A DNA stretch of 64,000 bases from Candidatus Nomurabacteria bacterium (GCA_943354745.1 CALRDB010000002.1:3679-67678); one strand, 5' to 3'; shown: positions 16,464 through 47,385, numbered from the stretch's first letter. Program-made: numbers and translations. The notes: generated from the letters alone by a model not told the origin.

Positions 16464-16508
16464 GGGGATCCAGAATCAACTGGATTCCCGCCTCCGCGGG
16501 AATGACAA
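16464..16508 (-). repeat. Hairpin repeat family copy a (CTGTCATTCC-stem-loop-GGAATCCAG)
   Basis: rc: tgtcattcccgcggaggcgggaatccag, nested in a larger palindrome. Confidence 0.7.
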
Positions 16509-16513
16509 CAAAA

Positions 16514-17950
16514 CTATTTCTTATCCACTTTAATCCCAAGCTCCTTAAGCTGGTCCGGACGGGCATCTGACGGTGCGTCCATGACGGAGGTGTGGCCTCC
16601 TGCATCCATTGGGAACGCGATGACTTCACGGATGTTCGGCTCATTTGCGAGGAGCATTACAAGTCGGTCGAGGCCCGGAGCCATACCGGCATGCGGCGGC
16701 GCACCGTATTCGTACGCTTTGATGATGTGACCGAATCGTTCCTCGGTTTGCTCCGATGTAAGACCCATAAGCTCGAACACTTTTCGTTGTACTTTCGGGT
16801 CGGAAATACGTACACCACCCGACGCAAGTTCATAGCCGTTGCAGACAAGGTCGTACTGTTGGGCGCCGAGTCCATCGAGTTCGGGGCTACGCTTCCCCGC
16901 CGCTTCCTTGTTGATGTTCATGAGCTTCTCGACATGTTCCGGCCGCGGAGCGGAAAAAGGATTATGGGCGAATGTGTAGTGGCTATTGTTGTCATCCCAT
17001 TCCAAAAGTGGGAAATCAACGACCCATGCGAACGCCATGGTGTTCGGGTCTTTCTTTTCCTCTTCACTCCGCATGTCGAATTTATCAGCACCGAATTGCT
17101 TCATCGCTTCTTCATGTGTGAAGACAGGAAACGGCTTTCTAAGCACCGTCTTCCCCACCGATTCAGCCACGTGAATCATAAGTCCCTCAACAAGGTCGAG
17201 AACATCGCGTTGTTTTACAAACGCCATTTCAAGGTCTATCTGTGTGTGTTCGAACTGACGATCGCCGCGAAGGTCTTCGTCTCGCATCGCACGCGCGAGC
17301 TGGAAGTAACGCTCAAAGCCCGAAAGCATCAAAAGCTGTTTGTATTGCTGGGGAGCCTGTGGAAGCGCATAGAATTTTCCCGGCTGCATGCGTGAGGGCA
17401 CAAGAAAGTCGCGTGCGCCTTCGGGCGAGGTCTTGGTCAGCATCGGGGTCTCTATTTCGATGAAATCATTCTTGCCCATGTACTCGCGGATAAGGGAGGT
17501 CACCTTCGCACGCAGGCGAAGATTCTTTTGCAGGCGCGGTCGGCGAAGGTCGAGGTAGCGATACTTAAGTCGGGCCTCTTCCCCAATATCCATACCGTCA
17601 CTACGTACGTCAAAGTGCGGCGTTTCCGCCTGACTGATTACCTGTGCACTAAGCATCTCCAGCTCCACCTCCCCGTTCGGCTCGTTCTTGTTCACTAGTT
17701 TTTCGGGGCGCTTGTTCACTTTGCCGGAAACGGCAATAACCCACTCGGGACGAATGGTTCCCGCCAGCGCGTGCGCTTCGGCGTGGCTCGGGAGCGCTAT
17801 CATCTGGACTTTGCCACTCTCGTCACGAAGGTCAATGAAGATAAGTTTCCCGTGGTCGCGGCGAATGTCCACGAAACCCGCGACAGTTACTTCCTGTCCG
17901 ACCATTTCTTTGAGGCTTTTAATCATTGTCCTGTTTTCCGGTTGGCTCAT
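16514..17950 (-). CDS. aspS: Aspartyl-tRNA synthetase, short form lacking GAD insertion (likely non-discriminating)
   Basis: Class II motifs; QAPQQYKQLLMLSGFERYFQ, GAPPHAGMAPGLDRLVML; 478 aa. Confidence 0.85.
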   Translation of the reverse strand: MSQPENRTMIKSLKEMVGQEVTVAGFVDIRRDHGKLIFIDLRDESGKVQMIALPSHAEAHALAGTIRPEWVIAVSGKVNKRPEKLVNKNEPNGEVELEMLSAQVISQAETPHFDVRSDGMDIGEEARLKYRYLDLRRPRLQKNLRLRAKVTSLIREYMGKNDFIEIETPMLTKTSPEGARDFLVPSRMQPGKFYALPQAPQQYKQLLMLSGFERYFQLARAMRDEDLRGDRQFEHTQIDLEMAFVKQRDVLDLVEGLMIHVAESVGKTVLRKPFPVFTHEEAMKQFGADKFDMRSEEEKKDPNTMAFAWVVDFPLLEWDDNNSHYTFAHNPFSAPRPEHVEKLMNINKEAAGKRSPELDGLGAQQYDLVCNGYELASGGVRISDPKVQRKVFELMGLTSEQTEERFGHIIKAYEYGAPPHAGMAPGLDRLVMLLANEPNIREVIAFPMDAGGHTSVMDAPSDARPDQLKELGIKVDKK

Positions 17951-17952
17951 AC

Positions 17953-18300
17953 ACGCAAATTTATAAATAAAAAAGTCCTTACAAAATCACCCCAAAGGAT
18001 GGTTTTGTAAGGACGTTCTTACGAGCGTGGTGCCACCTTACTTTCCCTTCTGTCATTCCCATGAAAATGGGAATCCAGTCGGGCTTCTTCGTTAGCTATA
18101 GCGGGCTTTCCCGAAGGGTTCTACTGTGGGCGAGCAGCTGTCTTCAACTGCTTTAGCCCTTTTCTTCCCTTAGCCTGCCCCGACAAGTCTTCTTCGTCGG
18201 GACTCAGCCGTGTCATCGGCTTCAGTGCTTTCATATACTGTACCACGTGTGAGGAAAAAGAAAAGCCGGTCTTCCCCACCCAGGAGGAAGCCGGCCTTGG
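17953..18300 (-). promoter_or_regulatory. T-box riboswitch leader of aspS (antiterminator A1 GUAAGG/CCUUAC with 7-nt bulge UGGCACC; terminator 17968-18014); 5' boundary uncertain
   Basis: Minus-strand RNA: AAGGUGGCACCACG matches T-box AGGGUGGNACCGCG in 12 of 14 positions; UGGC complements tRNA-Asp GCCA end; 12-bp terminator GUCCUUACAAAA/UUUUGUAAGGAC + U6 immediately before AUG. Confidence 0.65.
18050..18080 (+). repeat. Hairpin repeat family copy b
   Basis: ctgtcattcccatgaaaatgggaatccagtc. Confidence 0.7.
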
Positions 18301-18568
18301 TTTAGGGTGCCAAACGGCAATCAGGTATGGACTACGCATAGAGCAAGGCCCTATAGGTTTTCCCATATCTTACAACCTATCAACCCTATGACGTCATGTC
18401 ATTTTTTCGCCGACTATGCCTCTCTTGCATGCGATGGCGAGGGAAGGTAGAGGTAGTACTTATCGCACCAGGCGAGTTCCCACTTTCCGTTCCCCAGATA
18501 GACGACAATCTATCATACTACCGACTTTAGGAATTTTTGCTAGTTGCCTTTCCGTCCACGCACCTTCT

Positions 18569-18871
18569 TTAATGACCTGTATTCAGTACCAGATGTGCAA
18601 ATGGCAGAAAATAATCCTGAAGCGATTTTTCATCCACTGAAAAATGATGTCTCTGTGACGGTAAATCTTCTACAACTTCCCGTAGCACATTAATTTCAGA
18701 GCGTTCTGCCGGCCGAAGCGGTAATTCAGAGAGAGCATCGAAGATTCCTCTTGCCCGTTTCATCGCCCCATCCGCGAGTGCCGTATCACCTTTTGCAAGG
18801 GCAGATTGGAGGCGAGAAACCTCGCTACCGAGGTTTGCTACATAAAAGGCACTTGTTCGCGCGGGTGTCAT
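18569..18871 (-). CDS. Hypothetical protein
   Basis: 100-aa ORF in operon-like arrangement with downstream ORF and trpS; overlaps next ORF by 4 nt. Confidence 0.45.
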   Translation of the reverse strand: MTPARTSAFYVANLGSEVSRLQSALAKGDTALADGAMKRARGIFDALSELPLRPAERSEINVLREVVEDLPSQRHHFSVDEKSLQDYFLPFAHLVLNTGH

Positions 18872-19212
18872 AGTATCCGTTTGTTAATAATCATTCTTAT
18901 TTTCTCCTGAAGCTCCGGACTTTCAACCAGCATACCCCTGTTGTTTTGGGCTGGACGGATATTGATGAGCGAAGTGAACTCAATCCACTCGGCACGAGGC
19001 CTGTTCAGATGAATGTTGAAACCCCAGACGGTATCCTGCTTTGAGCCATTCTCCGTTAGGCACATATTCGCGTCCATGTGATATTCGCCGCCGAGCGCCA
19101 GAATCTCTCGCTCAATATCAACTACGCCTTTTACCATATCACCGTACCACTCCCGAGCGAGTGTAGCCAGCTCCTCTCTCGAAATTGCCTCAGTTACGAT
19201 TTTAATCTCCAT
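18868..19212 (-). CDS. Hypothetical protein
   Basis: 114-aa ORF immediately downstream of trpS, 1-nt spacing. Confidence 0.45.
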   Translation of the reverse strand: MEIKIVTEAISREELATLAREWYGDMVKGVVDIEREILALGGEYHMDANMCLTENGSKQDTVWGFNIHLNRPRAEWIEFTSLINIRPAQNNRGMLVESPELQEKIRMIINKRIL

Positions 19213-20166
19213 CTAATATAGTTTAACTCCAACCTTCTCCCTCACCTCGTCCATTTTGGCCGAGGCTTTTTCCTTGGCGCGGATGCCGCCTTCCTTTAAG
19301 ACTTTGAGTACTGCGGCGGTATCGCCTGCGATAGTCTTTCGCTTCTCCCGAAGCGGGCGGATAAAGGTTTTGATGTCGTTAATAAGCGCCTCCTTGAGTG
19401 CTTTGTACTTCCCCTCGTGCTGTTTGTACAAGACGGTCAATTCTTCTTCGGAACGGAAAAGTTTGTGCATCTCGTACACATTCTTTGGAATGCCTCCGCT
19501 TGAATCGGTGACAATACTCATCACGCACTTTTCAATTTCGGCATCTTCGGCAAAGAGCGGAATAGTGTTGCCGTAGCTCTTGCTCATCTTGCGGCCGTCA
19601 ATACCGGGGACAACGGCAACGTTCGCCAAAATCTTCGGTTCAGGCAATTTAAAAGTTTCGCCGTAAATGCGATTGAATTTCTCGGCGGTGTCGCGGGTAA
19701 TCTCGACGTGCTGTTTTTGGTCAGCACCAACAGGCACTACATCAGTGTCATAGAGAAGGATATCCGCGACCATAAGCATCGGGTAGTTAAAGAGCCCAAC
19801 ACTTATCTCCTTGCTCAGATTCGCCTCCGCAGCTTTGTAGGCATGTGCTCTCTGGAGGTACGGCACTGTGGTTATTGTGTCGAATATCCATGCAAGCTCG
19901 GTGTGTTCAGAAACATCCGATTGTTTGAAGATAATGGATTTTTCTGGGTCTAGACCAATCGAAAGATAGTCAATGGCTAGGTCAATAATGTTTTGCTTCA
20001 TCACCTTCGCGTCCTGAATGGCGTTAAGTGCATGGTAATCCGCAAGCATGAAAAGGCAATCGTGAGTCTCCTGCATATCCACGAATTGTTTCATCGCGCC
20101 GAAAAAGTTGCCGATATGCGGCCTTCCCGACGGTTGTATTCCCGATAACAGTATCTTTTTTGACAT
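19213..20166 (-). CDS. trpS: Tryptophanyl-tRNA synthetase
   Basis: GIQPSGRPHIGNFFGA (HIGH), KMSKSYGN (KMSKS); 317 aa. Confidence 0.9.
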   Translation of the reverse strand: MSKKILLSGIQPSGRPHIGNFFGAMKQFVDMQETHDCLFMLADYHALNAIQDAKVMKQNIIDLAIDYLSIGLDPEKSIIFKQSDVSEHTELAWIFDTITTVPYLQRAHAYKAAEANLSKEISVGLFNYPMLMVADILLYDTDVVPVGADQKQHVEITRDTAEKFNRIYGETFKLPEPKILANVAVVPGIDGRKMSKSYGNTIPLFAEDAEIEKCVMSIVTDSSGGIPKNVYEMHKLFRSEEELTVLYKQHEGKYKALKEALINDIKTFIRPLREKRKTIAGDTAAVLKVLKEGGIRAKEKASAKMDEVREKVGVKLY

Positions 20167-20208
20167 GCTTGTAATACTACCAAAAACCGCACCTTTTTGG
20201 AACTGGCT

Positions 20209-20238
20209 CTGGATTCCTGCTTACACAGGAATGACAGG
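20209..20238 (-). repeat. Hairpin repeat family copy c
   Basis: rc: cctgtcattcctgtgtaagcaggaatccag; about 30 nt upstream of trpS start. Confidence 0.7.
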
Positions 20239-20381
20239 TATTAGAGATTAGGTGAATTAGAAATTAGACATTACTTTACAGTTTGACGGGAAGTTCAACA
20301 ATAAAGGTAGACTCTTTCCCTTCTCCTCCCGATTCGGCGAGGGAGGATACCTGTAGCCTCTACATAGTACCGTAGAGATCA

Positions 20382-20768
20382 CTAAGAAATGTTTTGTCTC
20401 GGGTAGCGCGTCCCTCGCAGCAAAAAGTTGTGTTCTATTTCTGAGAGCCCGAAAGCCTTTGTGAAATAGTTCAAAATAAAAGTCGTGTCCATCCCCACTT
20501 TGCAACTGTACACATCAGCAGTGAGAAAACGTCTCTCAGTAAACGTGTGAATACTGATATGACTTTCGGCAATCAGCACTACCCCACTCACTCCACCAGG
20601 ATCTTTGGCTCCATTTCCATCAAATACCACAAGTTGCGGTTCGGCAATTTTGTGCATACCGAGAAGCTCGGGAAGTTCATTGAGACATGAAAGAACAAGC
20701 TCCTTGTCACAGAGTCTCTTTTTATCACCGTTATATCCGTCAATTGTTAGATGTTCACCGAAATGCAT
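20382..20768 (-). CDS. speH: S-adenosylmethionine decarboxylase proenzyme (pyruvoyl-dependent, SpeH type)
   Basis: LIAESHISIHTFTE self-cleavage motif (ES|H). Confidence 0.8.
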   Translation of the reverse strand: MHFGEHLTIDGYNGDKKRLCDKELVLSCLNELPELLGMHKIAEPQLVVFDGNGAKDPGGVSGVVLIAESHISIHTFTERRFLTADVYSCKVGMDTTFILNYFTKAFGLSEIEHNFLLRGTRYPRQNIS

Positions 20769-20967
20769 ACGCTCTATAGCGACACCTATTAAAAACTATA
20801 CCGTAATGTAAAATCCCGCCTCCGGCACACCCTTCATCAAGGACGCACCGAAGGCGGGACTCCTCATAAATTAAAAAATCGGTTACCTAACGTAACCAAC
20901 TTATTTGGGAGGACTCGCCGCACTTGTGAACAATCTTTTGGAAGTATATGTGTAATCGTACACAGCG

Positions 20968-21594
20968 TCAACGCTTTTGTGTGGACAAACGTTCTCGTAA
21001 TTCAGGAAAGTGACGATACATCTTCTGATTAAAGTCGTCCATGTCAGTGAATAGCTCCGCGATAAAGCCTGTCTGCCTCGCAACCTTGATATTTTCATGC
21101 TCATCATCCCAAAAGAGTGTTTCTGGTGGATGTATACCTTTCGTCGTTTCTACGTAGTTCCAAAAGCTGGCATCTTCTTTTCGAGAGCCGACATGCGCCG
21201 ATGAAAACACGGCGTCAAAATACATACCGAGACCAAACTCATTGAGGATATAGTCGGTACGATATTTTTCATTATCCGTTGCCAGAAAGGTAGCAACACC
21301 ACTCGCCCGGAGTGTCTGTATGGTCGAAAGCATTTCCTCATTACGCAAACCTTCTTTACTAAACCAAAAATAAAGAAGCTCTTCGAGAGTGCCCTTCCAC
21401 CCCCAACTACGATAGTAGCGAGCGAGTTCAATCTTTAAATCTCGTTTGCCAATAGTACAATCTCGGAATACCTCATTGAAAAATGGCGCGGTAGTTTCCT
21501 TGGTAATACCGTAGTCGGCACACAATCGATCGGTGAACCGCTTATCGCGATTAATCACCACACCGTCTCCGTCAATAATAAGATTTTTAATCAT
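20968..21594 (-). CDS. HAD-superfamily hydrolase
   Basis: N-terminal IIDGDGVV (DxD motif I); overlaps MFS stop by 4 nt. Confidence 0.55.
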   Translation of the reverse strand: MIKNLIIDGDGVVINRDKRFTDRLCADYGITKETTAPFFNEVFRDCTIGKRDLKIELARYYRSWGWKGTLEELLYFWFSKEGLRNEEMLSTIQTLRASGVATFLATDNEKYRTDYILNEFGLGMYFDAVFSSAHVGSRKEDASFWNYVETTKGIHPPETLFWDDEHENIKVARQTGFIAELFTDMDDFNQKMYRHFPELRERLSTQKR

Positions 21595-22865
21595 GTTTTA
21601 TGTCGTGCGCGGTGCGGCTTCACTGGAATAAGAGAAAATGAGACGTGCTTCTTTCCATGCTTATGGACCACAAAACGGTAGAACATCCACACAAGCAAGA
21701 CAGGAATAGCACTTATGACAATGGTCCAGGTTGGCCCCACAAAGGTGTAAGCGAATCCTGCAAGTACCGGGCCGATGGCCCATCCAAGATCCTGAAAAAG
21801 CGTAATGACCCCCGCAATCGTACCATCGTTGTCGTGTTCACGATCGAGTGAGTGTAGCCAGGACCAAAGTGAAATGCTGGCCATTTCGTCTCCCGATGTT
21901 GCAAGAAACCCAAAAAGTAAAAAGAGCCAACCGAAGTCAAAGCCAAGGAGTATACCGGATACCGCGAATAAAAGCAGACCGAAAAAGACAAGAGCTCGCT
22001 TATCACTTCTATCGGCAAGATGTCCAAAAAGGAACCCGAGCAGTACAATCGAAAAGTCGAAGATACCCAAACCAAGACTGAGTAGTCCCGCATTCGCCTG
22101 ATGAGCGATCACGAGCGGTACGACAAACCAAATAGCACCGTAGAAAATACAACCGACGAAAGAGACGAGGAGTAACATACCACTCGCTGGGTTAAGGCGT
22201 TTAAGCGCTCTAAGTGTCGTGTGAAGAAAATGGCGACGAATAAAATAATGGTGCGAAGATACTTTCTTCTCCTTGTGAACTGAAACATAATCTTCCGGAC
22301 TAAAAAAAAGAAAAAACAACGAGACGAGGAGAAGTACGAAGATGACAGATCCCATAATTTCAGGTTTTTGTGTCAGTACCAAAGGAAGCGCAATGCTTGC
22401 AAGTACCACACCGATTGACCCCGCTACATCTCGAACTGAAATGAACTTACCCGCTATGTCCTTAGGAGCATGCGAAAGTACATACGCGTCAACGCCTGGT
22501 CCAAAGAAAAGCCAGCCAAAAATACTAAAGAGTAGACTAAGAAGATAGGTTATCCTCGTAAGCCCGAATGTAAGCGTAATCGCGGCAAACAAAAAGAGAA
22601 GAGTGGTTATCTTCAAAAATCTGCGATAACCAAAGCGGTCGAGAAGATGTCCCGCTGGAACATCGAGAAGAAGCTGCACAAAGGAGCAACTTCCCATCAG
22701 GAGACCGACGACCCACAAAGGAAAAAATTGCTCACCGAGAGGTGAGATAAGGGAGTAATGCAAACTCCCTCCGAATTTAAACAACAACAAGAAAAACCAA
22801 AATGGCAAAAAGCTTAGAAGAGCGTTTGCGAGTGAGCGAGTGTTTGCTGTTGAAGTGGAAGACAT
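21591..22865 (-). CDS. MFS transporter
   Basis: 12 predicted TM helices; start taken at MSSTSTANT since upstream ORF extension overlaps tRNA-Arg. Confidence 0.7.
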   Translation of the reverse strand: MSSTSTANTRSLANALLSFLPFWFFLLLFKFGGSLHYSLISPLGEQFFPLWVVGLLMGSCSFVQLLLDVPAGHLLDRFGYRRFLKITTLLFLFAAITLTFGLTRITYLLSLLFSIFGWLFFGPGVDAYVLSHAPKDIAGKFISVRDVAGSIGVVLASIALPLVLTQKPEIMGSVIFVLLLVSLFFLFFSPEDYVSVHKEKKVSSHHYFIRRHFLHTTLRALKRLNPASGMLLLVSFVGCIFYGAIWFVVPLVIAHQANAGLLSLGLGIFDFSIVLLGFLFGHLADRSDKRALVFFGLLLFAVSGILLGFDFGWLFLLFGFLATSGDEMASISLWSWLHSLDREHDNDGTIAGVITLFQDLGWAIGPVLAGFAYTFVGPTWTIVISAIPVLLVWMFYRFVVHKHGKKHVSFSLIPVKPHRARHKT

Positions 22866-22879
22866 GATGGGCTTATGAA

Positions 22880-22954
22880 TGGTGCTCCTAGCTGGAATCG
22901 AACCAGCATCATCTCCTTCGGAGGGAGATATCCTATCCATTGAACGACAGGAGC
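22880..22954 (-). tRNA. tRNA-Arg (anticodon CCG), CCA encoded
   Basis: rc gives GCTCCTG-TC-GTTCAATGGATAGGAT-A-TCTCC/CTCCGAA/GGAGA-TGAT-GCTGGTTCGATTCCAGC-TAGGAGC-A-CCA. Confidence 0.8.
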
Positions 22955-23097
22955 GTCAGGCACCTGCCCGACACGCTTCGCTGTCGATGCGGGCGGGAGT
23001 CGGGCAGGTATCCATTGAACGACAAGTGCGCACGACTATCTTATCTCCTCAGTCGGGAAATGGGAACCTCTTTTAGTTCCGTTGTCCGACTTGCCTT

Positions 23098-23388
23098 TTG
23101 ACTCATTTTCTTCTATCTTTTGCGTGGGCAGCAAATTTAGTAGAAATTATGAACGAAGATCAACTAATTATGCACGTGGAGGGAACCATCGTATTCTCTT
23201 CTGAGGGGTATACGAACCAGGCAAGGGCGGAACAACAAGGGAACCGAGAGGAGCCGGGAAAACCTTCACCTCTTCATAATACAAACAGCAATCAGGCTCT
23301 TTTTGCGGCGAACAAGCCTGCAAGGGAGTGGAGGCAGAGAAAACTCAATGAGGATAGACGCCGAGTACGGGGACTTGAAATTCGATAA
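23098..23388 (+). CDS. Hypothetical small protein (weak)
   Basis: Only ORF between tRNA-Arg and terminator; low complexity. Confidence 0.25.
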   Translation: MTHFLLSFAWAANLVEIMNEDQLIMHVEGTIVFSSEGYTNQARAEQQGNREEPGKPSPLHNTNSNQALFAANKPAREWRQRKLNEDRRRVRGLEIR

Positions 23389-23412
23389 CATATAAACATA
23401 TAAAAGAGACGA

Positions 23413-23452
23413 CAAATGCAAAAAGCGACCACCGGTGGTGGTCGCTCTTTTT
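23413..23452. terminator. Bidirectional rho-independent terminator
   Basis: aaaagcgaccaccggtggtggtcgctcttttttatctttt. Confidence 0.75.
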
Positions 23453-23494
23453 TATCTTTTCATCGTCTACATTCTACTTACTACTCGCTTCGCG

Positions 23495-24589
23495 CTATAT
23501 CCCCTGCTTCTTTAACTCTTCAACAAGCTTCTTTACGTCTTTCGAGAGCTTGCTTGGAAGGTCAATGACAATTTTAATAAGTAAGTCACCACGACGGTTC
23601 CTGTCGATGGGCACTCCTTTCCCTTTGAGGCGAAGCATCTCACCCGGTTTAATACCCTCGGGAATCTTAACCGTCACATTACCATCGAGAGTGGGAATAG
23701 TGTATTCATCACCGAGTAACGCGCTTGAAAGTTTAATCTGCAAATCCATAAGGAGATTACTTCCTTCTCTTTGGAAGAGAGCGTGCTTTTGTACATGTAC
23801 CTTCACATAGAGATCTCCTGCAACGCCTCCTTGTATTGCCTCACCTGCTCCCCCGAGACGGATAACTTCTCCATCTTCTATACCCACCGGCACCTTAACG
23901 ACAATCTCCTCCTGTTTTCGATTAACTCCAGCACCGTGACAGGTGCCACACTTCTCGGAAGGTACTTGGCCCCGTCCCAAACAATCATCGCAGGTCTTGG
24001 TGGTCTGGACAGCTCCGAAAATAGAACGACGACTTTCACGAATTTTGCCCTTACCATTGCAAGTTTTACAGGTCTCCAGCTTCGCGCCCGGCTTTGCTCC
24101 GCTTCCTTTACAGATATCACAGCTACTCGTCTTATTTAACAGCATGCGGCGTTCAACACCGAAGATAGACTCGGAGAATGAAAGCTCAATATCGACGGAA
24201 ATATCACGTCCGCGTCTCGCGCGCTCTCGTTGACCACCGAAGAAGTCACTGAAAATATCACCGAGGTCAAATTCAAATCCATTCGCGTTCCCGCTGAAAC
24301 CTTGCCCTGAAGCAAAGTTACTGAAATCGAATCCTTCAAAGCCTTCATGTCCGGCTCCAGCACCATTACTCGCGCCCCCGGAAAATACTCGGCCATAGGC
24401 ATCATACTCCGCGCGCTTTTTCTCGTCCGAAAGCACGCTGTACGCCTCGTTCACTTCTTTAAACTTCGCCTCATCACCACCTTTCTTATCGGGGTGGAAT
24501 TTATGCGCCATCGTACGAAACGCCTTTTTAATATCGTCTTGCGAGGCTGCTTTTTGGATACCGAGAAGGTCGTAGTAATTTTTTGACAT
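23495..24589 (-). CDS. dnaJ: Chaperone DnaJ (Hsp40)
   Basis: J-domain YYDLLGI…HPDK; four CxxCxGxG zinc-finger repeats. Confidence 0.9.
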   Translation of the reverse strand: MSKNYYDLLGIQKAASQDDIKKAFRTMAHKFHPDKKGGDEAKFKEVNEAYSVLSDEKKRAEYDAYGRVFSGGASNGAGAGHEGFEGFDFSNFASGQGFSGNANGFEFDLGDIFSDFFGGQRERARRGRDISVDIELSFSESIFGVERRMLLNKTSSCDICKGSGAKPGAKLETCKTCNGKGKIRESRRSIFGAVQTTKTCDDCLGRGQVPSEKCGTCHGAGVNRKQEEIVVKVPVGIEDGEVIRLGGAGEAIQGGVAGDLYVKVHVQKHALFQREGSNLLMDLQIKLSSALLGDEYTIPTLDGNVTVKIPEGIKPGEMLRLKGKGVPIDRNRRGDLLIKIVIDLPSKLSKDVKKLVEELKKQGI

Positions 24590-24813
24590 AGCTATACGAA
24601 AATACGAATTACACGAATCAACGAATGGCTACGAATAAGAATCGAAAATAAGTATATATCAAGAAGCTTCTACGCTAGATTGACAGAGTATACATTATGT
24701 TCTACTGTTTTGTCCAGCCGGTTTAGAAATCAACAAAAAAATGGCCGGGTAAGAGGATGGCACCAAATGAACAATTATAAATGTAACAAGGGGTGTCTTT
24801 TTTTATGCAAAAA

Positions 24814-25515: not shown

Positions 25516-25568
25516 CAGAGAGGACTAGCGTAACTTAAGTAAATGTGTTACCGTTTTACTAGAACCTT

Positions 25569-26054: not shown

Positions 26055-26115
26055 AAGTACCCTGAACGAATTCACAAAACGCCGATCCAATCTTGGAGCG
26101 GCATTTTTTATGCTA

Positions 26116-27171: not shown

Positions 27172-27256
27172 CGATTTGAAATTAATTTTTAATTTTCTAA
27201 TTTTTTAATTTCTAAATAATTTCCCGATGTCTTTTGTTTAAAAACTGGAAATTGGT

Positions 27257-27400
27257 TATTAAAAATTAAAATCCTTCCGTCCAGGAAGAATTTGACATTG
27301 TATCTTCCCTCGCGGGCTAGATGGAGCACCGCGTTCTCACAAAACCGGTTGCCGGAGGATCCTTGAGCTAGTACTCTCCCCTCTCTCTTGATATATATTC
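27257..27400 (-). promoter_or_regulatory. SAM-I (S-box) riboswitch with intrinsic terminator in metK leader
   Basis: Minus-strand RNA AUCAAGAGAGAGGGGAGAGUACUAGCUCAAGGAUCCUCCGGCAACC…GGUGCUCCAUCUAGCCCGCGAGGGAAGAUA matches SAM-I conserved blocks (AUCAAGAGAGG, GGCAACC, GGUGC..A); hairpin CUUCCUGGACGGAAG followed by U-rich tract. Confidence 0.6.
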
Positions 27401-27489
27401 AGTTGTGACTACATAGTATCTAACTTACGAAAAACATGCAAAGTTACACGACAACTATCTATAGTAGAACTTAGGCACTCGGTCTCTTT

Positions 27490-27519
27490 CTGTCATCCTC
27501 GCGGATGCGGGGATCCAGT
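27490..27519 (+). repeat. Hairpin repeat family copy d (variant CATCC arm)
   Basis: ctgtcatcctcgcggatgcggggatccagtg. Confidence 0.6.
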
Positions 27520-27537
27520 GTTGAGTTATTTTTTAAG

Positions 27538-27568
27538 GACTGGATTCCACTTTAGAGTGGAATGACAC
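27538..27568 (-). repeat. Hairpin repeat family copy e
   Basis: rc: gtgtcattccactctaaagtggaatccagtc. Confidence 0.7.
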
Positions 27569-27591
27569 CGATTGCGTAAATCCTACATATA

Positions 27592-30126: not shown

Positions 30127-30172
30127 AAAAGTAGAAATAATCTTCTAGTAATCTGTAAATAAAACTATAGCG

Positions 30173-31033
30173 TTATTTGAGTCCCTCCGCATCTTCAACC
30201 TTATACTCCCCTATCCGTGTACGACGAAGTCCTGCGAGCGTGGCGGGAACGCCGAGTCGCCGACCGAATTCTTCGGCGAGAGAGCGGATGTAGGTGCCGC
30301 TTGTAACGTCGAAGCGGGCAGAAATAATGGGGAGGCTTATTCCTCCTTTGTTAAAGGAGGTGCCTCCGTCTTCGGAGGCGGAGGATTTTAACCACCCCTC
30401 AATCCCCTCCTTCAGAACTTCTCCGCCTCGCAGACTCGGCACCTCCTCTGGGAGAAGAGGAGGTGGGAGGGGAGGAAATCCCTCACCTTTCGGGTCCCCT
30501 CCCTTTTTCAAAGGGAGAATCTTAAGTCCAAGAAACTCCACAGAAGTTATCTCCATCGTCTTTATCGGTGTATCTACGACTTCCCCACGCCTCGCTTTTT
30601 TGTAGAGCGCTTCTCCACCCCGTTTGATAGCGGAATACGCCGGAACCGGAAGCTCAAGCTTTCCTATCATTGTCTGCAGTATCTTTTCCATTTCTTCGTT
30701 TGAGATTTTAGAAATTGAATCATTATTTGAAAATTGAGAATTGGAAATTGGTAATTCTTCAAGAATCTTCCCCGTTATATCTCCCGTATCCGTTTTTACT
30801 CCGAGTAGTATTTCCGCTTCGTATGCTTTATCCAGCTTCAAAAACTCGTGCAGTTTTTTGGTTCCGTCGCCAACTCCGATAATCATGAGTCCTGTCGCCA
30901 TCGGGTCCAGCGTTCCCGCGTGCCCCATTTTGCGTATATTCAGCTTCTTCCGCAGTATACGGATACAGTCAAAGGAAGTAATGCCTTTAGGTTTATCAAC
31001 AAGTAGTATATTTTGAGGTAGAATAGTAACCAT
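30173..31033 (-). CDS. truB: tRNA pseudouridine(55) synthase with Pro/Gly-rich internal insertion
   Basis: LLVDKPKGITSFD…GHAGTLDPMATGLMIIGVG catalytic motif. Confidence 0.85.
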   Translation of the reverse strand: MVTILPQNILLVDKPKGITSFDCIRILRKKLNIRKMGHAGTLDPMATGLMIIGVGDGTKKLHEFLKLDKAYEAEILLGVKTDTGDITGKILEELPISNSQFSNNDSISKISNEEMEKILQTMIGKLELPVPAYSAIKRGGEALYKKARRGEVVDTPIKTMEITSVEFLGLKILPLKKGGDPKGEGFPPLPPPLLPEEVPSLRGGEVLKEGIEGWLKSSASEDGGTSFNKGGISLPIISARFDVTSGTYIRSLAEEFGRRLGVPATLAGLRRTRIGEYKVEDAEGLK

Positions 31034-36116: not shown

Positions 36117-36163
36117 CGTACTCTCTACACTTCTATTTACTAATAATTTGTTATACTTCGTCC

Positions 36164-36979: not shown

Positions 36980-37079
36980 ATTTAGGAAATAAGATTTACG
37001 ACATATGAAAAAGCCCGTTCTCGTGTGAGTGCGGGCTTTTTAGCATGAAAAATCGCCGATGTTTTCTTCTTACTACTCC

Positions 37080-40016: not shown

Positions 40017-40115
40017 GCACGTAGTATAGCAAATGCGAAAAAACCGGCTCTTCACCGGTTTTTTCTTATTCCGTGTCAGTTCCGCGTTGGCTTCGTTCTG
40101 TCTCGTTCCGTGATT

Positions 40116-41315
40116 TTAATAGCCCTGCAACTTTTTCGACTTCTTATGCTGGCGGATTTTTTCGTGAGCTTTCGCTTCGATTTGGCGGATACGTTCGCGA
40201 GTCACGCCGAATTTTTGTCCCACTTCTTCGAGTGTGTGCGTGACACCGTCGAGGAGGCCATGCCGAAGCTCTAGAATCTTTCGCTCTTTTTCTGAAAGGT
40301 CGCCGAGAATTTCCTTCACTTGGTCTCCGAGGATACGGCGGGACGATTCCTGGTCGGGAGAAAGTATCTTGTCATCATGTAAAAAGTCTCCGAGTGTTGA
40401 CTTGCCGTCGTCGCCCTCATCGCCGACTGGCGATTCCAGCGAAACGGTATCTTGGTCAATTTTTTCAATCTGGTACACCTTGTCCGTCTCAATACCCATC
40501 TCGATACCGATTTCTTCCGGAAGCGGGTCGCGGCCGAGATCTTGTGAAAGTCGTCTCACGACTTGCTTGTACTTAGCGATAGTCTCCACCATATGGACCG
40601 GCACGCGAATAGTGCGGGATTGATCGGCGAGTGCGCGAGTAATCGCTTGGCGGATCCACCACGTAGCATACGTTGAAAATTTATACCCCTTGGTCCAGTC
40701 GAATTTGTCGACAGCCTTAAAGAGACCTAAGTTCCCTTCTTGAATGAGATCGAGGAGTGTGAGGTCAGGCGAGCGTCCCACGTATTTTTTAGCAATCGAA
40801 ACAACCAAACGGAGGTTCGCTCGAGCAAGAAGATTTTTGGCTTCCATGTCTCCCGCCTGAATGCGCTTCGCGAGCTCTTTTTCGTCTTTGGCGTTGATGA
40901 GGGGGTATTGTCCGATTTCCTTGAGGTACATCTGAATCGAATCATAGGATCCTTCACTACTCTTGCCGAGGTAGACATTTTTCTTTCCATGCGGTTCCGC
41001 GACTTCTTTCTCAAGCATTCCACCACCTTCGAGTACGTCAATACCCGCTGTTTGGAATTTGGAGTAAAGTTCATCGAGGAACATGATGTCCTCTTCGATG
41101 GTAGGAAATTCTTTCAAAATGTCGTTATAGGTGATGAACCCGCGATTCTTACCCTTTGCGACAAGACGATCAGCACGTATATCACGCTCCTTACCTTTAG
41201 CCATTTTCTCGACAGGTTTTGATGCAACCTTACTCTTTATAGGCTTCTTTTTTGGAGCAACCTTTGCTTTAATGGCTTTTTTCTTCTTTTTGAGGTCTTT
41301 TTTCGCTTTTGACAT
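40116..41315 (-). CDS. rpoD: RNA polymerase sigma factor RpoD (sigma-70)
   Basis: Region 2 [17 protein letters not shown]…[10 protein letters not shown]; region 4; ORF-track start is TTG at 41387, ATG at 41315. Confidence 0.88.
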
Positions 41316-41387
41316 AGTGGCGATAGTATATCTTAAATAGCGGTAACTGCAACCGTCCGAACATACGAAGAAAAGAGTGGGTTCCAA

Positions 41388-42010
41388 AGAACCTGGGGCT
41401 GCTTAAAAAATGTAAGAAAAAAGCGACTTGAGATGCTACCCAAGTCGCTCGACACAATGCGGTACACTACTCGACCCGACCCAACTCCGCAAAACCATGA
41501 GTGACTAAACCGCAATCGCCAAACGCTCGCGAACGAGCGTTTGGCCCCAAGCAAAGGACGTGATACCGCACCGGACACCACTCAACACGACCGCGGATTG
41601 ACATAATTGCCATGCCTCCGTAAACGAAAGCACGGCCCCGTACCGTAGAACTCAGTGCAGAACAACTGGACACGAAGCCCGAGCCCACCATGCTGTGCCA
41701 TACCTAAATGTGTCAGCCGATTCGAAAATCGACTGACACCCGAACGCTACAAATGAACAGAGGACAAAACAAGACCCTGCAAAACAATACGGCAATCGCA
41801 CTCCAACCGAAGTCGGAGTGCTCCAAGCTGTAACGCTCCGGACCCTGCAACACTTGACGATACCGGACATGACCGCAGAATACACCACCGAAATAAACGG
41901 GAGGTGAAATCCACCTCCCGTTCCCAGACAGGACACAAACGTACAATGCATAACCCTACTGAACCTTACCGAACTGGACCGAAATATTCCGCACCTGCTT
42001 CCAAGTTTGG
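41388..42010. other. CA-skewed hairpin-dense noncoding block A
   Basis: + strand about 63% A+C; perfect hairpins e.g. ccaaacgctcgcgaacgagcgtttgg, cgggaggtgaaatccacctcccg, gtgtcagccgattcgaaaatcgactgacac; ORF track shows only short overlapping two-strand ORFs. Confidence 0.7.
41415..41450 (-). terminator. Rho-independent terminator (minus-strand sense) immediately upstream of rpoD
   Basis: + strand gaaaaaagcgacttgagatgctacccaagtcgc; minus strand gives 8-bp stem followed by U6. Confidence 0.6.
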
Positions 42011-42017
42011 ACCCGGA

Positions 42018-42659
42018 CTATTCACCTGCATATCCTTTCGGTTGCTCCGTCCACTGCCAGCTCACTGCCTCGAACTTCCCGTACGCGCCCCGTTGCTCGG
42101 CCGAGAAGAGACCTATCCCGATATCGCGCCCCGCACTGCCGACGAGCCTCTGGATAATCTTCTCATTAAGCGGCGCCGAGAATGAGATGAGCGCCTCACA
42201 TGACCAGTCGTCAAACTGGGGGCAACGAACGATGCCCATCTCGCGTGAGTTCGGCCTCGCGTGACGATTGCGGGAGTACACACTCCAACCGGAAGTGCTC
42301 GAGAGTATGAGATATCCTCCGATGATGCAGTATTGACTCACCTGATCCACGAAGTGGCCACTATGCCTATCCTGATACGGCCATGCCGCCATGCGAACCG
42401 CGTGCTTCAGCCACCTGCCTGGCACCGCGATACACCCACTGCGAGTGTCGCGGACAAGCAAGTCAGCTAAAGGTTGCTTTGAGATCTTGATGATCTGTTC
42501 ACGCCTGGTATGGTCCGTTATCGGATGCATAAGAAGCGGTGTGACTCCCCGTAGGTGAACGAGGAGGTATTTCTTTGATATCGGTGCCGGTAGCTTCATA
42601 ACGGAGCTCCGAACCGCGTTGGGAACTGGCATTTCTGCCATAACTGTTTTTGTGTTCAT
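42018..42659 (-). CDS. Hypothetical protein (orphan ORF embedded in noncoding island)
   Basis: 213-aa ORF with normal base composition flanked by CA-skewed DNA; no recognised domain. Confidence 0.45.
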   Translation of the reverse strand: MNTKTVMAEMPVPNAVRSSVMKLPAPISKKYLLVHLRGVTPLLMHPITDHTRREQIIKISKQPLADLLVRDTRSGCIAVPGRWLKHAVRMAAWPYQDRHSGHFVDQVSQYCIIGGYLILSSTSGWSVYSRNRHARPNSREMGIVRCPQFDDWSCEALISFSAPLNEKIIQRLVGSAGRDIGIGLFSAEQRGAYGKFEAVSWQWTEQPKGYAGE

Positions 42660-43639
42660 AAATCAATGATCTGTCCAAAACCAACATGCAGAATAACACG
42701 TTTATATAAATACGTCAACTTTCGTATAAAAAGGCGCCATCCGAAGCCGGACAGCGCCATATGATCCAAACACCGGCGAGCATTGCAACGCGATACTATT
42801 CAGAACGCTAACTAACACAAGAGCAATTTCCCGCTCCGATGTAGCATCGGAGCGGGACCCGCAACAGAAGTAACCGCACTCCGGAATACCTTGCGATACA
42901 GAGCCTAGCCCCGCCGGACCGAAATTGCCACCCGTCTTCGAAAAAACGGGTGGCCACGGACCGTACCCGGTTCTACCCGACAGGACATTAGAGTACACAA
43001 CAAGAACCAACACCACCAGAATTTCCTGCCAGCCGTAACCGGCTGACAGGACCCGGACGCTACTCGAGAGTTCAGGACAGGACCTGACTGGACAGAAACG
43101 CGCGTAACCGTAATTCCAGGCCTCTGCGTGCAGAGACCTGGTCCGTGCAAAACAGCGGAATGCACTGGCGGACAGAACAGTATCGAACCGAACCGTACTA
43201 TAGGCTAACAGGAACTTAATTCCCCAAACTCCCTCATCGAGAGTTTGGGTCCGAGCTTCACGGGACATTGCGACACGATGCGACTGCTAGACGCATCTTT
43301 CCAGAAATTCCTATCCTCCCGAGAGAGGTAGGATCCGAACAAAAAAATCTTCTGACGCACAAGACCAGACCTGACTGTAACTGAGACGGCACAAACGCAA
43401 CTGTCGAGTCCTTGTAGTAAGGACTCGACCCTGACCATGCACAACTCCACAACGCCAGACCGAACGGGACAGGGACTAAGCATACTTTTGCGCAATTTCC
43501 TGTCCGTTCTAACGAATGAACAGGACCCACACTCAACCTCACCCAACAGAACATTTGAGAGCGACGACGCAGAATACCTTACCATAGTGAACAGTTACGC
43601 CGAAGCGTACCTGCTGTTTTTCAATGCTCAAATGCTAAC

Positions 43640-43702
43640 TGCAAAGTAACACGAAAATCTATTTTAGGCAAGAAAAAGGCGTCCCGAACGAATCGAGACG
43701 CC
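43640..43702 (-). promoter_or_regulatory. Terminator (43672-43702) plus conserved 20-nt motif TGCAAAGTAACACGAAAAT (43640-43658), module copy 1
   Basis: Minus strand: GGCGUCUCGAUUCGUUCGGGACGCC-UUUUUCUU followed by UAGAUUUUCGUGUUACUUUGCA. Confidence 0.55.
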
Positions 43703-45276
43703 AGCCATAAAGAAGACAAGCCCTGGGCACGGTGCGGAACAATACCTCACCGAGCATAACCTTAATTTGAGTGCTCCGACACATCGAAGCACTCACCCTA
43801 CCGCGGACTTGCATACGAGAAGAAACCCAACCTTGCTAGTGAGTACCGAACCCAAAAGAACCACTGTGTGCGACACCGTATCTACCGATGCCTGGCAAGG
43901 CAGGCATCGGTCCTACACCCTACCGCTCTCTACCCCATGGTACCTAACACCACTGAACACTACATCATCGAAACGAAGTCTGAACGCCGATTGAGAATCG
44001 GCGTTCACCCGTACCGAACCATACCTTGCAACAATCCACAGAACTGAAACGCGCAGCAGATGACAGGACCGAAATTTGTCGTCCCGATTTGTTCATCGGG
44101 ACGACATCCGTACTCTGCGACACCGGTCATTACCTGACAGGTGCACACGCTACGTTACAGGACCATAATGTGCTATCTCGATGAAGCATCGAGATAGCAT
44201 CCGCACCACTATTGGCCGGACAATAAGATACTCTGCAACACCCGAGAATTGAGATCCATAATTTCACCGTCCCAATAGTACATCGGGACGGTGACCCAAC
44301 AAAACCATACCTGACAGGACACCGCGATACTGCAGAACACAGGAGAGGACACTGACTTACCGTAACTTCCCAGACCCTCGCAAGCGAAGGTCTGGGACCC
44401 AACCATACCGGATAACGCCGGACAACGCGCCACTCTACTACACCTGAACGCAATCGCCCATCCCGATCTTAATCGGAATGGGCTCCGAGAAAAACCGTAC
44501 CGTAGAATACACTGCCTTAACACACGAAACGGTGACATACGGAACCGCATTATTCTGCTTCAACCGAAGTCAAAGCAGAACCCACACCGGACATGAATTC
44601 ACCGTACAACACCCTACCCCACTTAAGATGACAAGAGAGCGATAGGTCGCCCTGACCGAAACCAGAGCAACCCCCTACAGAACAGCGCATCGCCACAGGA
44701 TTGCACGCGCTACATAACCAAGCCGGAGCGCAAAGGCTGTCCCGATCGAAATCGGGACGGTCCCGAAGCAAACGGCACGTTTGCGCACACTTGATTACAG
44801 AACTTGAATGCAACATGCTGAACTGAGGCACTGCGTATATACCGCTCCGACCGAAGTCGAAGCGGCTTCGCACGCTACGCTACCGTGCGGGACACAAACA
44901 GACGTTACACCACTCTACGTAACCGCGATACATCACGCGCTCACTGAGCGCGTGATGCCCCCCGCCGCACCAAGCGACACTAAACCCCGACGGACAGAGG
45001 CTATCCTGAACGTGCCACAACTGTCATGCACCGTGAGATGCATGACATCAGCGACAAGCATTACCAGGCCTGACAGAGACACGCCTTGCAGTACGTTTCC
45101 TAGCCTGACCTAATCCTGCGAAACCAGAATTTACCACCCCGACCAGAGTCGGGGTGGTACCCGAGGAAAGCATTAGCTGACCTGACATAAAGACGGAAAG
45201 CCCCACCTATGCTTACTGGGCCGAACGCTACCAAATTTAACTCATTTTCAGTTGACAATGAGCTACTAACGAATTT

Positions 45277-45356
45277 CAAAGTAACACGAAAATAGAGATA
45301 ACGCAAGATTCGCAATCCTGCAAGAAAAAAGGCGTTTTGAGAAAACTCAAGACGCC
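45277..45356 (-). promoter_or_regulatory. Terminator (45325-45356) plus conserved motif CAAAGTAACACGAAAAT (45277-45293), module copy 2; terminates helicase gene
   Basis: Minus strand: GGCGUCUUGAGUUUUCUCAAAACGCC-UUUUUUCUU then …CUAUUUUCGUGUUACUUUG. Confidence 0.55.
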
Positions 45357-45378
45357 GTCGATTGACCTGCAATGGAGA

Positions 45379-47214
45379 TTACTTTCCAAACATCCGCTTC
45401 ACCTCCGCTACCGCCTCGGCGAAGCTTTTGCCACCGTCGTAGTATTGGCGAAGCCCTTCAGAGAGCCGTGGCCAAACGATCTTCCGAAACTGCTGTGAGA
45501 TAAATATGATAGCCCCTTTATCCTTCGGACTCCGAATGTTCCGCCCCATGTGCTGAAGTGACTTGATCCCCACGCGCCATTGTTCAAGTTTGAAATGAGT
45601 GCTTTCACCCCACTTCCTCACCTCGAACACACTTGCTGGATCATCCGGCCTGCTGTATCCAGGACGAAGATCGAAGATGACCGGCGCGAGGCCGTCAGGA
45701 AGATCGAGCCCTTGCCCGAAGTTCGTTTCCGTACCGACCAGAGTCATACCGAGACCATCTTTGAACTCCTGCGCGGCAGTCCGAGCCATTCGTTCACCGC
45801 CATAGCTCACAGTGTCGAGACCCAGATTCGTCGAGTGAACCAAGAATTGATCACGCTCATCGTTTGAGACGACAATGACCAGACTCCGAATCCCCATGTC
45901 CGCCCACTCCTTGCACGCCTTGACCATGCTCTTGAGCGCTTTCTTCAGATCATCGGGCTTCCGGTTCTTCGTTGAGAGGTCCGGCGTATCGGACGGCATG
46001 AAGATCTTGGCGTTCTGTGGAGGAAAGCTTGACGGAAGCGAGAGAAACTCTCCTTCTTCCATTCCGGTTTCCCAACCGAACGTGTCTTTATCCCCGACAG
46101 TAGCCGAGAAGGCCGCGTACTCTTCGCCCAGTATTGAGCGGATGATAGGCGCCACTGTGTGTGCCTTAATCACCAGCTTATGCTGAACGCGCTTACCCTC
46201 CGCGAGTTCCTGCTGATGAAAGGCGTAGCTGTAGTTCATCCTTTTCCGTTTCAACGTGTCGAGCGAATACTCGAACGAGTGAATGTACCGGCGGATATCC
46301 CGCACCAGCACCTCCACTTGGCGAAGTGTTAGGGCCTCTTCCACTTCATCGACGGCCCCTTCACCTATTGCTTTGATGAGCTTATCTCCCAGCCTCGCCG
46401 GATTAATCGCTTCAAGCAGACCCATGAGCTCGAGGATTTCTCCATCCTCAATGATGGTCGGCTTCCACGCAGCCTTCTTCTTAACGATGTCAATCATGCG
46501 TTTCTGAAACTTCGCGAGAAGATCCGTCTCATCGACCTCAAGTCTCTCGAGTAGTTTGACGGCTCGACCGAGGTGATAGTCACTAATCTCGTAAGAGAGC
46601 GTGCGACGAACCACGTCGCCCATTAGGTGCGCTTCGTCAATGACGAGCACCTTCGGCTTCTCCCACCGCTTCGTGAAAAGCTGAGAGAAGAGATAATACG
46701 CAAAGGTGCAGAGCACGATTGGCGCGTTCATAGCCTTGTGGGTGAAGTGATAGTACTGACAGCGCTCCGCGTCCTTCTCGTGCGTCTCCCCCGTTTTGAG
46801 GTTGACGCGATGCGGACAGTTCCGCAGGAAAGAGCAGGCGATTTCATCCGCGCGATATTGAACATCTTCCGGCTTGGTCTCAAGCGAGAATCGTTCATCC
46901 GCGTTGTCCTCGTAGTAGTAGCACGGGAAATCATGTTTACCCACCACGATGGCGAGGTCGAGATATTCCCGATAAATCTGCTGGAGGATGGTCTTGTTCG
47001 GCGTGATGAGAAACAGCGGTTTCTTGCCCGCGTTTGCCGCGGCCTTCAGAATGGCATACTCGACGGCAGTCTTGCCGTGGCCGGTCGGCATCTCAATGAT
47101 GGACTTCGGATGCTGTGCCCAGAATTCGAGAACCTGCCGCTGTTGCGGGCGCATAACGCTGTGCTTCTCTGACGGAAATGCCGAACAGAGTTCGGCAAAG
47201 GTTTGTCTGCTCAT
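45379..47214 (-). CDS. DinG/XPD (Rad3)-family ATP-dependent DNA helicase with Fe-S domain
   Basis: Walker A EMPTGHGKT, DEAH box VIDEAHLM, four Cys between motifs I and II; ORF-track start TTG at 47256, ATG at 47214. Confidence 0.75.
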   Translation of the reverse strand: MSRQTFAELCSAFPSEKHSVMRPQQRQVLEFWAQHPKSIIEMPTGHGKTAVEYAILKAAANAGKKPLFLITPNKTILQQIYREYLDLAIVVGKHDFPCYYYEDNADERFSLETKPEDVQYRADEIACSFLRNCPHRVNLKTGETHEKDAERCQYYHFTHKAMNAPIVLCTFAYYLFSQLFTKRWEKPKVLVIDEAHLMGDVVRRTLSYEISDYHLGRAVKLLERLEVDETDLLAKFQKRMIDIVKKKAAWKPTIIEDGEILELMGLLEAINPARLGDKLIKAIGEGAVDEVEEALTLRQVEVLVRDIRRYIHSFEYSLDTLKRKRMNYSYAFHQQELAEGKRVQHKLVIKAHTVAPIIRSILGEEYAAFSATVGDKDTFGWETGMEEGEFLSLPSSFPPQNAKIFMPSDTPDLSTKNRKPDDLKKALKSMVKACKEWADMGIRSLVIVVSNDERDQFLVHSTNLGLDTVSYGGERMARTAAQEFKDGLGMTLVGTETNFGQGLDLPDGLAPVIFDLRPGYSRPDDPASVFEVRKWGESTHFKLEQWRVGIKSLQHMGRNIRSPKDKGAIIFISQQFRKIVWPRLSEGLRQYYDGGKSFAEAVAEVKRMFGK

Positions 47215-47356
47215 AATCAGTCTTCGGATGTTTGATGTTTGGTGTTCCCTTGTCAAAATCCACTCCCGAAGGAGTGAACTGGAGTCTTAGCCCCGTGCTA
47301 ATCCTCGACGCACACTAACAGGATTTCTCGTCTACGTCAAGGTTTGGTTACGGGTC

Positions 47357-47385
47357 TGTCATTCCCTTGGAAAAGGGAATTCAGT
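47357..47385 (+). repeat. Hairpin repeat family copy f
   Basis: ctgtcattcccttggaaaagggaattcagtg. Confidence 0.65.

Follow-up and report, generated by a model that had tools for sequence, protein, structure and literature searches.

The CGTC superfamily of tagged repetitive extragenic palindromes (REPs) was classified by Di Nocera, De Gregorio and Rocco (BMC Genomics 2013, 14:522; PMC3733652). Its CGTC-1 type carries a CGTC or TGTC tag (a CCTC variant is allowed), an 8-bp stem that opens with A-T followed by T-A, a loop of 4 nt, and the tail CCA. Most of its dimers are tag-outward (HH), some copies lie in frame within genes, and the type was equated with dRS3 in Neisseria and with RPE-6 in Rickettsia conorii. 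In 2013 CGTC repeats were described as having "no dedicated transposase" (PMC3733652). Here we describe a family of hairpins that fits this type in a 64-kb stretch of a chromosome from the Parcubacteria/Paceibacterota, a group of the candidate phyla radiation (CPR). The stretch, hereafter the window, is deposited under Candidatus Nomurabacteria bacterium (GCA_943354745.1, CALRDB010000002.1:3679-67678), and positions are counted from its first nucleotide.

A nuclease acting on hairpins of this class was characterised in Neisseria by Chenal et al. (Nat Commun 2025, 16:2388; PMC11893778), who describe a 28-nt NTS, CGTCATTCCCGCGMAVGCGGGAATCYRG, and broader Ssn-related motifs (SRM), the latter searched for with the expression HGTCWYN(0-2)YYVSBRHN(0-5)WNVSBRGN(0-2)RNCYNB. 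SsnA is a 94-aa single-domain GIY-YIG protein that binds the hairpin only as single-stranded DNA (ssDNA), does not interact with its RNA form, and cuts a few nucleotides upstream of it. In Neisseria, cutting depends critically on the three bases that precede the palindrome and binding on the C that follows it, and a change to the palindrome that kept the structure abolished activity. Transposition of the class by Ssn has never been demonstrated and was raised by the authors as a hypothesis only (PMC11893778).

We conclude, with a probability of about 0.7, that the window hairpins are CGTC-1 type tagged REPs, of the class of Neisseria dRS3/NTS, Rickettsia RPE-6, and the Ssn-related motifs, on a Parcubacteria chromosome, and that they would act as ssDNA hairpins for an Ssn-like nuclease. 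An earlier sequence-only reading of the same DNA, made by a model, had offered REP-like elements as one possible identity, and this was correct: the hairpins fit the CGTC-1 family point by point (PMC3733652). The novelty it proposed is lost by the same result, as that reading had itself foreseen for the case of a match to known REPs of a characterised lineage. What is new here is the host phylum, the breadth of the apical variants, and an in-frame dimer in the truB gene of a relative; the class itself was already known and its mechanism has been characterised since 2025. A long-known and recently explained repeat class (dRS3/NTS/RPE-6/CGTC-1) is thus placed in the CPR, for which we found no report in the literature examined, and the current understanding of the class is unchanged by these results.

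The tagged hairpins and their place in the CGTC-1 family

Pattern searches and direct reading show that the hairpin family is real and has seven copies in the window (Table 1). The six copies listed in the sequence-only reading all exist, with small coordinate corrections, but the count is seven, and the copy placed at 16464 is the 3' arm of a longer one (16418-16473) that had gone unrecognised. The general layout of a unit is TGTC-ATTCCxyz-loop4-z'y'x'GGAAT-CCAG, and the six short copies, each of 28 nt, follow the consensus TGTCAT(T/C)C-N-GGRAT(C/T)CAG. The tag is TGTC in 7/7 copies, and the tail is CCA in 6/7 and TCA in the copy at 47357. The stem ATTCCxyz/z'y'x'GGAAT with a 4-nt loop is found in 6/7; the seventh, at 16418, keeps the stem (base ATCCCCGT/ACGGGGAT), the TGTC tag, and the CCAG tail around a 32-nt loop insert that occurs only once within the window. 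On folding, this copy forms the same closing stem (-11.2 kcal/mol). As ssDNA, all six short copies fold into an 8-bp stem and a 4-nt loop, with z-scores from -2.8 to -5.3.

The family is sharply bounded, without degenerate copies in the window, because a covariance model built on the six short copies and run over the 64 kb scores these at 44-49 bits and the next best window match at 14 bits. Four copies (16480, 18051, 20209, and 27540) match the exact frame TGTCATTCC-N10-GGAATCCAG, against about 2e-6 such matches that chance would give in 64 kb when both strands are counted. Taken separately, the two halves of this frame (a 10-mer and a 9-mer) show no enrichment in the window, and so the signal is their pairing at a fixed distance. 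At the gathering threshold, Rfam returns three tRNAs and one S-adenosylmethionine (SAM) riboswitch from the whole window and no match at the hairpins. The units are arranged as two HH dimers and three singletons, and tail-to-tail (TT) and head-to-tail (HT) dimers are absent. The 8 nt upstream of the tag form a pyrimidine-only octamer in three of the seven copies (TCTTCCTC at 16418, TTCCCTTC at 18051, and TCTCTTTC at 27491), which could reflect a target-site preference or merely an adjacent sequence on the other strand that resembles a ribosome-binding site.

Table 1. Hairpin copies and other features of the window, with strand, sequence and apex, covariance-model score, and position
Feature	Coordinates	Strand	Sequence and apex	Score (bits)	Position and remarks
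Long REP variant, left unit of HH dimer	16418-16473	+	TGTCATCCCCGT-[32 nt]-ACGGGGATCCAG	12.7 (partial match)	Between aspS stop and acetyltransferase start
REP, right unit of HH dimer	16480-16507	-	TGTCATTCCCGCGGAGGCGGGAATCCAG; canonical NTS-like apex	47.4	6 nt from partner at 16418 and 6 nt downstream of aspS stop; the pair occupies the whole aspS-acetyltransferase spacer
REP singleton	18051-18078	+	TGTCATTCCCATGAAAATGGGAATCCAG; apex CAT/ATG, loop GAAA	48.3	Antisense to aspS, 100 nt upstream of its start
REP singleton	20209-20236	-	TGTCATTCCTGTGTAAGCAGGAATCCAG; apex TGT/GCA, one G-T pair	46.0	Sense orientation, 42 nt upstream of trpS start
REP, left unit of HH dimer	27491-27518	+	TGTCATCCTCGCGGATGCGGGGATCCAG; ATCCTCGC/GCGGGGAT variant with T-G pair	48.9	Dimer between tsaC stop and metK SAM riboswitch
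REP, right unit of HH dimer	27540-27567	-	TGTCATTCCACTCTAAAGTGGAATCCAG; apex ACT/AGT	44.2	21-nt spacer to partner at 27491; 24 nt downstream of tsaC stop
REP singleton	47357-47384	+	TGTCATTCCCTTGGAAAAGGGAATTCAG; apex CTT/AAG, tail TCAG not CCAG	47.4	Within VIPR island, between last guide-RNA terminator and helicase start, 100 nt upstream of the DinG-like helicase; also in metagenome contig L305 of the same organism
Vipr homologue	49189-50010	-			426 homologues
Vipr homologue, paralogue of 49189-50010	42018-42659	-
DinG-like/phage-type helicase, candidate accessory gene	45379-47256	-			Between two arrays

All structural features of CGTC-1 are found in the window units. The unpaired CGTC/TGTC tag, the 8-bp A-T/T-A stem, the 4-nt loop, and the CCA tail are shared with that family, as are the presence of several stem and loop sequence types, the dominance of HH dimers, and a location mostly between co-directional genes with occasional in-frame intragenic copies. 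The differences are that the reported hosts belong to the Proteobacteria, Chlorobi, Bacteroidetes, Spirochaetes, and Thermotogae, whereas the host here is one of the Parcubacteria, and that the apical pairs are unusually diverse in the window. The 28-nt length is that of the NTS, the non-apical positions are those of CGTCATTCCCGCGMAVGCGGGAATCYRG, and the GTCATTCC...GGAATCCAG frame is shared with the binding and cleavage positions that it includes: the cleavage-critical GTC precedes the palindrome in 7/7 copies, and the binding-critical C follows it in 6/7. Rickettsia RPE-6 and RPE-4, which correspond to CGTC-1 and CGTC-4 (PMC3733652), are likewise small palindromic units or dimers able to sit in frame in genes, which here is seen in one relative (locus L248). 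They differ in that the seven window copies are all intergenic, and the insert in the truB gene of the window is a different palindromic element of about 190 nt.

The sequence-only reading had noticed that the apical stems differ from copy to copy and yet stay complementary, and this is borne out by the alignment, in which 98.5% of cells are paired and four pairs have changes on both sides. None of 500 shuffles reaches the covariation score, and slid controls are only 27-53% paired. Variation falls on the three apical pairs, and the outer TG/CA pairs between tag and tail are invariant, which speaks neither for nor against the proposed outer CUG/CAG helix. That reading took the compensatory pattern as selection on structure. 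The covariation is real and there is a pairing constraint, but independent compensation in place is not seen, and identical apical variants reappear at unrelated loci of other genomes. Because the same variants recur in this way, also in the two units of the L248 dimer, apical covariation reflects separate inherited sequence types, which pass from locus to locus and over the long term are constrained to remain paired, and not in-place compensation at each site.

In the viral collection the apex is less free than in the window. It is nearly always xGCG-NNNG-CGx' in 183 copies from at least 120 viral-collection loci, and a pattern with a G/C-free apex (two apical pairs) occurs at one viral locus and at least 120 metagenome loci. 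The exact frame with N10 is very common, being found in at least 120 viral-contig loci.

All seven copies lie outside coding sequence. The coding fraction is 0.885 outside the island at 41-50 kb, and the probability that four independent loci are all intergenic is about 2e-4; the positional bias relative to genes that the sequence-only reading proposed to look for is therefore present. The copies lie four on the plus and three on the minus strand, and their flanking genes are all on the minus strand, so the units show no preferred orientation with respect to transcription (4:3).

The probable partner nuclease

At least 240 public loci, viral and metagenomic, were retrieved by the hairpin pattern alone. 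Ssn-family genes lie beside or between the hairpins in four of the viral loci (L066, L024, L063, and L106) and in eight of the metagenome loci (L185, L205, L256, L217, L294, L213, L276, and L241). The usual arrangement is hairpin(+)-gene-hairpin(-), as in L066 at 3005-3377, which is the hairpin-gene-hairpin geometry of the NTS/SRM-Ssn system. Hairpins at the metagenome loci include non-canonical apices such as CATGTAAATG, and the upstream unit of L256, ATGTCATTCCCATGTAAATGGGAATCCAG, is near-identical to the window copy at 18051. When open reading frames (ORFs) within 300 nt of the hairpins were clustered without supervision, Ssn ranked second, and no other top cluster was nuclease-like, the remaining ones being phage structural proteins from related contigs. 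One Ssn homologue labelled as Patescibacteria (P0192) is flanked by related sister hairpins, GTCATTCTGAG...GAAGAATC, which shows that the pairing of nuclease and hairpin exists in the CPR. P0192 was the sole CPR-named sequence among the thousands of homologues that protein searches returned, and as its hairpin is related to that of the window but different, these included no Ssn labelled as Parcubacteria next to exactly the window type.

Several observations weigh against our assignment. An Ssn-family gene was found neither in the 64-kb window, by a crude GIY-YIG regular expression, by tblastn with the Ssn from L066, or by profile hidden Markov models (HMMs; built from 124 and 244 Ssn sequences) run on six-frame ORFs, nor in the 9 kb further left in the same organism. 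The published SRM expression fits one of the seven copies (27491) and one unrelated window match, and a strict NTS query with one mismatch allowed fits 0/7, the variable apex being the cause. The copy at 47357 has a T in place of the binding-critical C. Free variation of the apex also requires a nuclease with a different or looser specificity than that of Neisseria SsnA, for which the sequence of the palindrome matters; a cognate enzyme here would have to tolerate any paired apex. Finally, mobilisation of these units by Ssn is as hypothetical here as it is in the literature. The window thus departs from the NTS/SRM-Ssn system in lacking a visible ssn gene, in that the SRM expression misses 6/7 copies, and in its free apex; the role of that system in transformation is shown for Neisseria only.

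The co-occurring nuclease that the sequence-only reading advised looking for is thus found between such hairpins in public loci, but not in the window or the 9 kb to its left, which also holds no further hairpin copies. We infer that the units of this genome depend on an Ssn enzyme encoded elsewhere in it. With one true copy and one unrelated match, the SRM expression was rejected as a detector for this lineage. Where the apical stem is not GC-rich most copies escape it, and censuses of these motifs are therefore likely to be too low. The natural apical variants, together with the copy that lacks the binding-critical C, provide a specificity panel for Ssn enzymes, which are under development as ssDNA tools.

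Gain and loss, proposed mechanism, and alternatives

Among neighbouring copies at most 120 nt apart in the at least 240 public loci, 86 are tag-outward, 14 tag-inward, and 16 tandem, and both window dimers are tag-outward. In this geometry both presumed cut sites lie outside, as in the cassettes that carry a gene. The syntenic relatives L121 and L133 contain no copy in 21 kb each. Locus L248, whose MetK is 84% identical and whose HAD protein is also 84% identical, has a different tsaC-metK spacer without the dimer. Its truB gene (835-1557) contains a 60-nt HH dimer in frame at 1309-1366, which adds 20 codons (...CHPRESGDPVLDSHFHGNDK...). The right unit of this dimer is 28/28 identical to the window copy at 18051, and the left unit (1309-1336) is of the ATCCTCGC/GCGGGGAT type, including the T-G pair, as at 27491 in the window. 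The relatives without copies and the truB dimer of L248 together indicate that the elements come and go like mobile DNA. More distant CPR relatives also carry units, three in L146 and a diverged pair in L141. Between the window and L121, divergence of the intergenic sequences is too great for exact insertion boundaries or target duplications to be placed.

The truB gene of the window (30173-31033, minus strand) contains a palindromic composite insert of about 190 nt, in frame, at 30330-30520, the same site as the L248 dimer. It consists of nested palindromes (CTCCCTTTGAAAAAGGGAG, GGAGGTGCCGAGTC...GGCACCTCC, and CCTCCTTTAACAAAGGAGG) and makes the protein about 53 residues longer than TruB of L248, where a related element is intergenic (4385-4545). 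This insert is a second, MITE-like palindromic family (MITE, miniature inverted-repeat transposable element).

In the mechanism that we propose, the element would act as DNA and not as RNA. When the tag-bearing strand becomes single-stranded, in replication, repair, or DNA uptake, the hairpin would fold, and a small single-domain GIY-YIG nuclease of the Ssn family (cd10448) would bind the base of the stem and the C that follows, and then nick a few nucleotides 5' of the tag. In an HH dimer both cut sites would face outward, which is the geometry of the hairpin-ssn-hairpin cassettes. Given this likeness, HH dimers are most simply read as gene-less derivatives similar to MITEs or to REPINs (REP doublets forming hairpins), spread and lost over evolutionary time, and we infer that they are the propagating unit in this genome. 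The consequences for the host would be local, in that ssDNA bearing the sites would be cut or recombined, possibly with incidental RNA hairpins in operon transcripts as a by-effect.

We also considered whether the hairpins function mainly as RNA, be it as stabilisers of mRNA 3' ends, processing sites, attenuators of aspS, trpS, metK, and the helicase gene, or sites for an RNA-binding protein. The stems are stable, the copies all lie between co-directional genes and so are probably transcribed, and many REPs have been argued to act as RNA elements (PMC3733652). However, the element is asymmetric, with a TGTC tag at one end and a CCAG tail at the other, and yet it lies antisense in four copies and sense in three relative to genes that are uniformly on the minus strand. 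The sequence-only reading had placed copies in 5' leaders as well as between genes in both orientations; the intergenic location and both orientations stand, but neither leaders nor RNA-binding hairpins are favoured, for the same reason. A run of T follows the stem in none of the seven copies and a terminator scan called none of them, and with no T-run on the transcribed strand the copies do not have the form of intrinsic terminators. Moreover, syntenic relatives have the same genes without the copies, one relative has a dimer inside coding sequence, and SsnA of Neisseria showed no interaction with its hairpin as RNA (PMC11893778). We therefore regard a mainly RNA role as unlikely.

A DNA role of another kind, as attachment or target sites of a site-specific recombinase, like dRS3 for filamentous prophages that use an IS110/Piv-type enzyme, is less probable still. 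Three of the seven copies (18051, 16480, and 47357) contain the strict dRS3 core, ATTCCC-N8-GGGAAT. The dRS3 repeat has been reported as the target of a phage recombinase (PMC11893778). Against this, no IS110/Piv or other transposase adjoins any copy, the sole integrase-type genes (5485-6681) lie at a distance of 10 kb and are XerC/D-like, and apart from the one 32-nt loop insert there is no insertion at or between the copies. Scans of the ORFs adjoining the copies with Pfam, NCBIfam, and PHROGs returned no nuclease and no transposase, and neither an IS110-type recombinase gene nor a gene for RAYT, the REP-associated Y1 transposase, was found in the window or the 9 kb to its left. Classical GTAG-type REPs or REPINs mobilised by RAYT resemble our units in architecture: both are short tagged palindromes, intergenic, in tag-outward doublets thought to be the mobile unit, and each kind would be recognised as ssDNA by an enzyme of its own, with the cut at or close to the tag. 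The tag, however, is TGTC and not GTAG, the enzyme would be a GIY-YIG nuclease instead of a HUH Y1 transposase, and CGTC-type repeats have never been found flanking RAYT genes (PMC3733652). The REP-associated Y1 transposase that the sequence-only reading suggested as partner belongs to the GTAG-tagged superfamily and not to CGTC, and none was found among the window ORFs scanned, which makes this origin very improbable.

Under the preferred assignment to the CGTC-1/NTS class, a bolder version may be proposed, although we hold it to be doubtful. The window units could represent a distinct CPR sub-class in which recognition is limited to the tag, the five basal pairs, and the tail, with pairing as the sole demand on the apex, and which is served by a predicted Ssn-like enzyme. 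Its tag-outward dimers would be currently mobile, REPIN-like units able to insert in frame even into essential genes, truB among them, and the nuclease-hairpin pair could form a self-marking or restriction layer acting on incoming ssDNA. The basis for such a role would be that CPR bacteria rely on the uptake of DNA in single-stranded form; a role of this kind for the nuclease-hairpin pair has been shown for transformation in Neisseria.

The VIPR island and other surroundings

The copy at 47357 lies in an island of 8.8 kb (41400-50200, minus strand; GC 0.53) between rpoD (40116-41387) and dnaG (50228-51982), which are adjacent in the relative L127. The ORFs of this island are mostly Cys-rich nonsense translations without family matches; about 5.5 kb of it is non-coding, with some 15 strong hairpins on the minus strand. 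Tracts of at least six GGYNN pentamers number 16 in the island and 0 elsewhere in the window on both strands; shuffled versions of the island contain 0.3 on average and never more than 3. Homologues of 49189-50010 and the second Vipr ORF of the island were combined in a 51-sequence profile, which matches the solved SUSP1 Vipr protein (PDB 36pp_D) over its full length with E = 4.4e-16. VIPR systems, described in 2026 preprints, comprise RAMP-like Vipr proteins and vrRNAs of alternating GGY/NN, with helicase accessory genes in some types. Because the Vipr homologues, the helicase, and the GGYNN guide-RNA tracts match these descriptions, the rpoD-dnaG island is a VIPR locus. A TIGR-Tas array at 47.4-49.2 kb was also considered and rejected, as a 36-nt dual-repeat unit is absent, the hairpin loops span only 4-7 nt, and no Nop-domain match was found.

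The remainder of the window is a housekeeping stretch of a Parcubacteria/Paceibacterota chromosome. Its AspS is 83% identical to that of the metagenome-assembled genome GW2011_GWC2_48_17, and the presence of DUF5674, a short AspS, and small genes fits the Parcubacteria assignment. The same organism is represented in NCBI GCA_964851075.1 and in several metagenome assemblies, and ERR5863107, ERZ27280223, ERZ27280297, and ERR3719144 contain related reads. At the left of the window, a 77-aa Phage_integrase fragment (5485-5718, minus strand) adjoins a full 315-aa XerC/D-like tyrosine recombinase (5734-6681, minus strand), with domains annotated on contig L308 of the same organism.

The hairpins account for spurious peptide motifs and wrong start and stop calls in annotation. 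An ATG within the tag (16421-16423) leads to a false, longer start call in the acetyltransferase gene, whose true ATG is at 16405 by comparison with L121, and a junk ORF in the region 47359-47691 takes its TGA stop from the tag of the copy at 47357. The hairpin dimer near metK lies about 94 nt upstream of the SAM-I riboswitch of that gene (27297-27397, minus strand), which scores 45.0 bits against an Rfam gathering threshold of 44.4. Between the hairpin upstream of aspS and the next convincing gene there are about 490 nt (18079-18568) in which the sole ORF, of 81 aa, is unconvincing. In L121 the trpS-aspS interval holds a nucleotidyltransferase/HEPN-like pair instead, so the interval is variable. 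AspS itself (16514-17950, minus strand) is only 478 aa long and matches the bacterial AspS model in two stretches, and it appears to be without the usual inserted domain.

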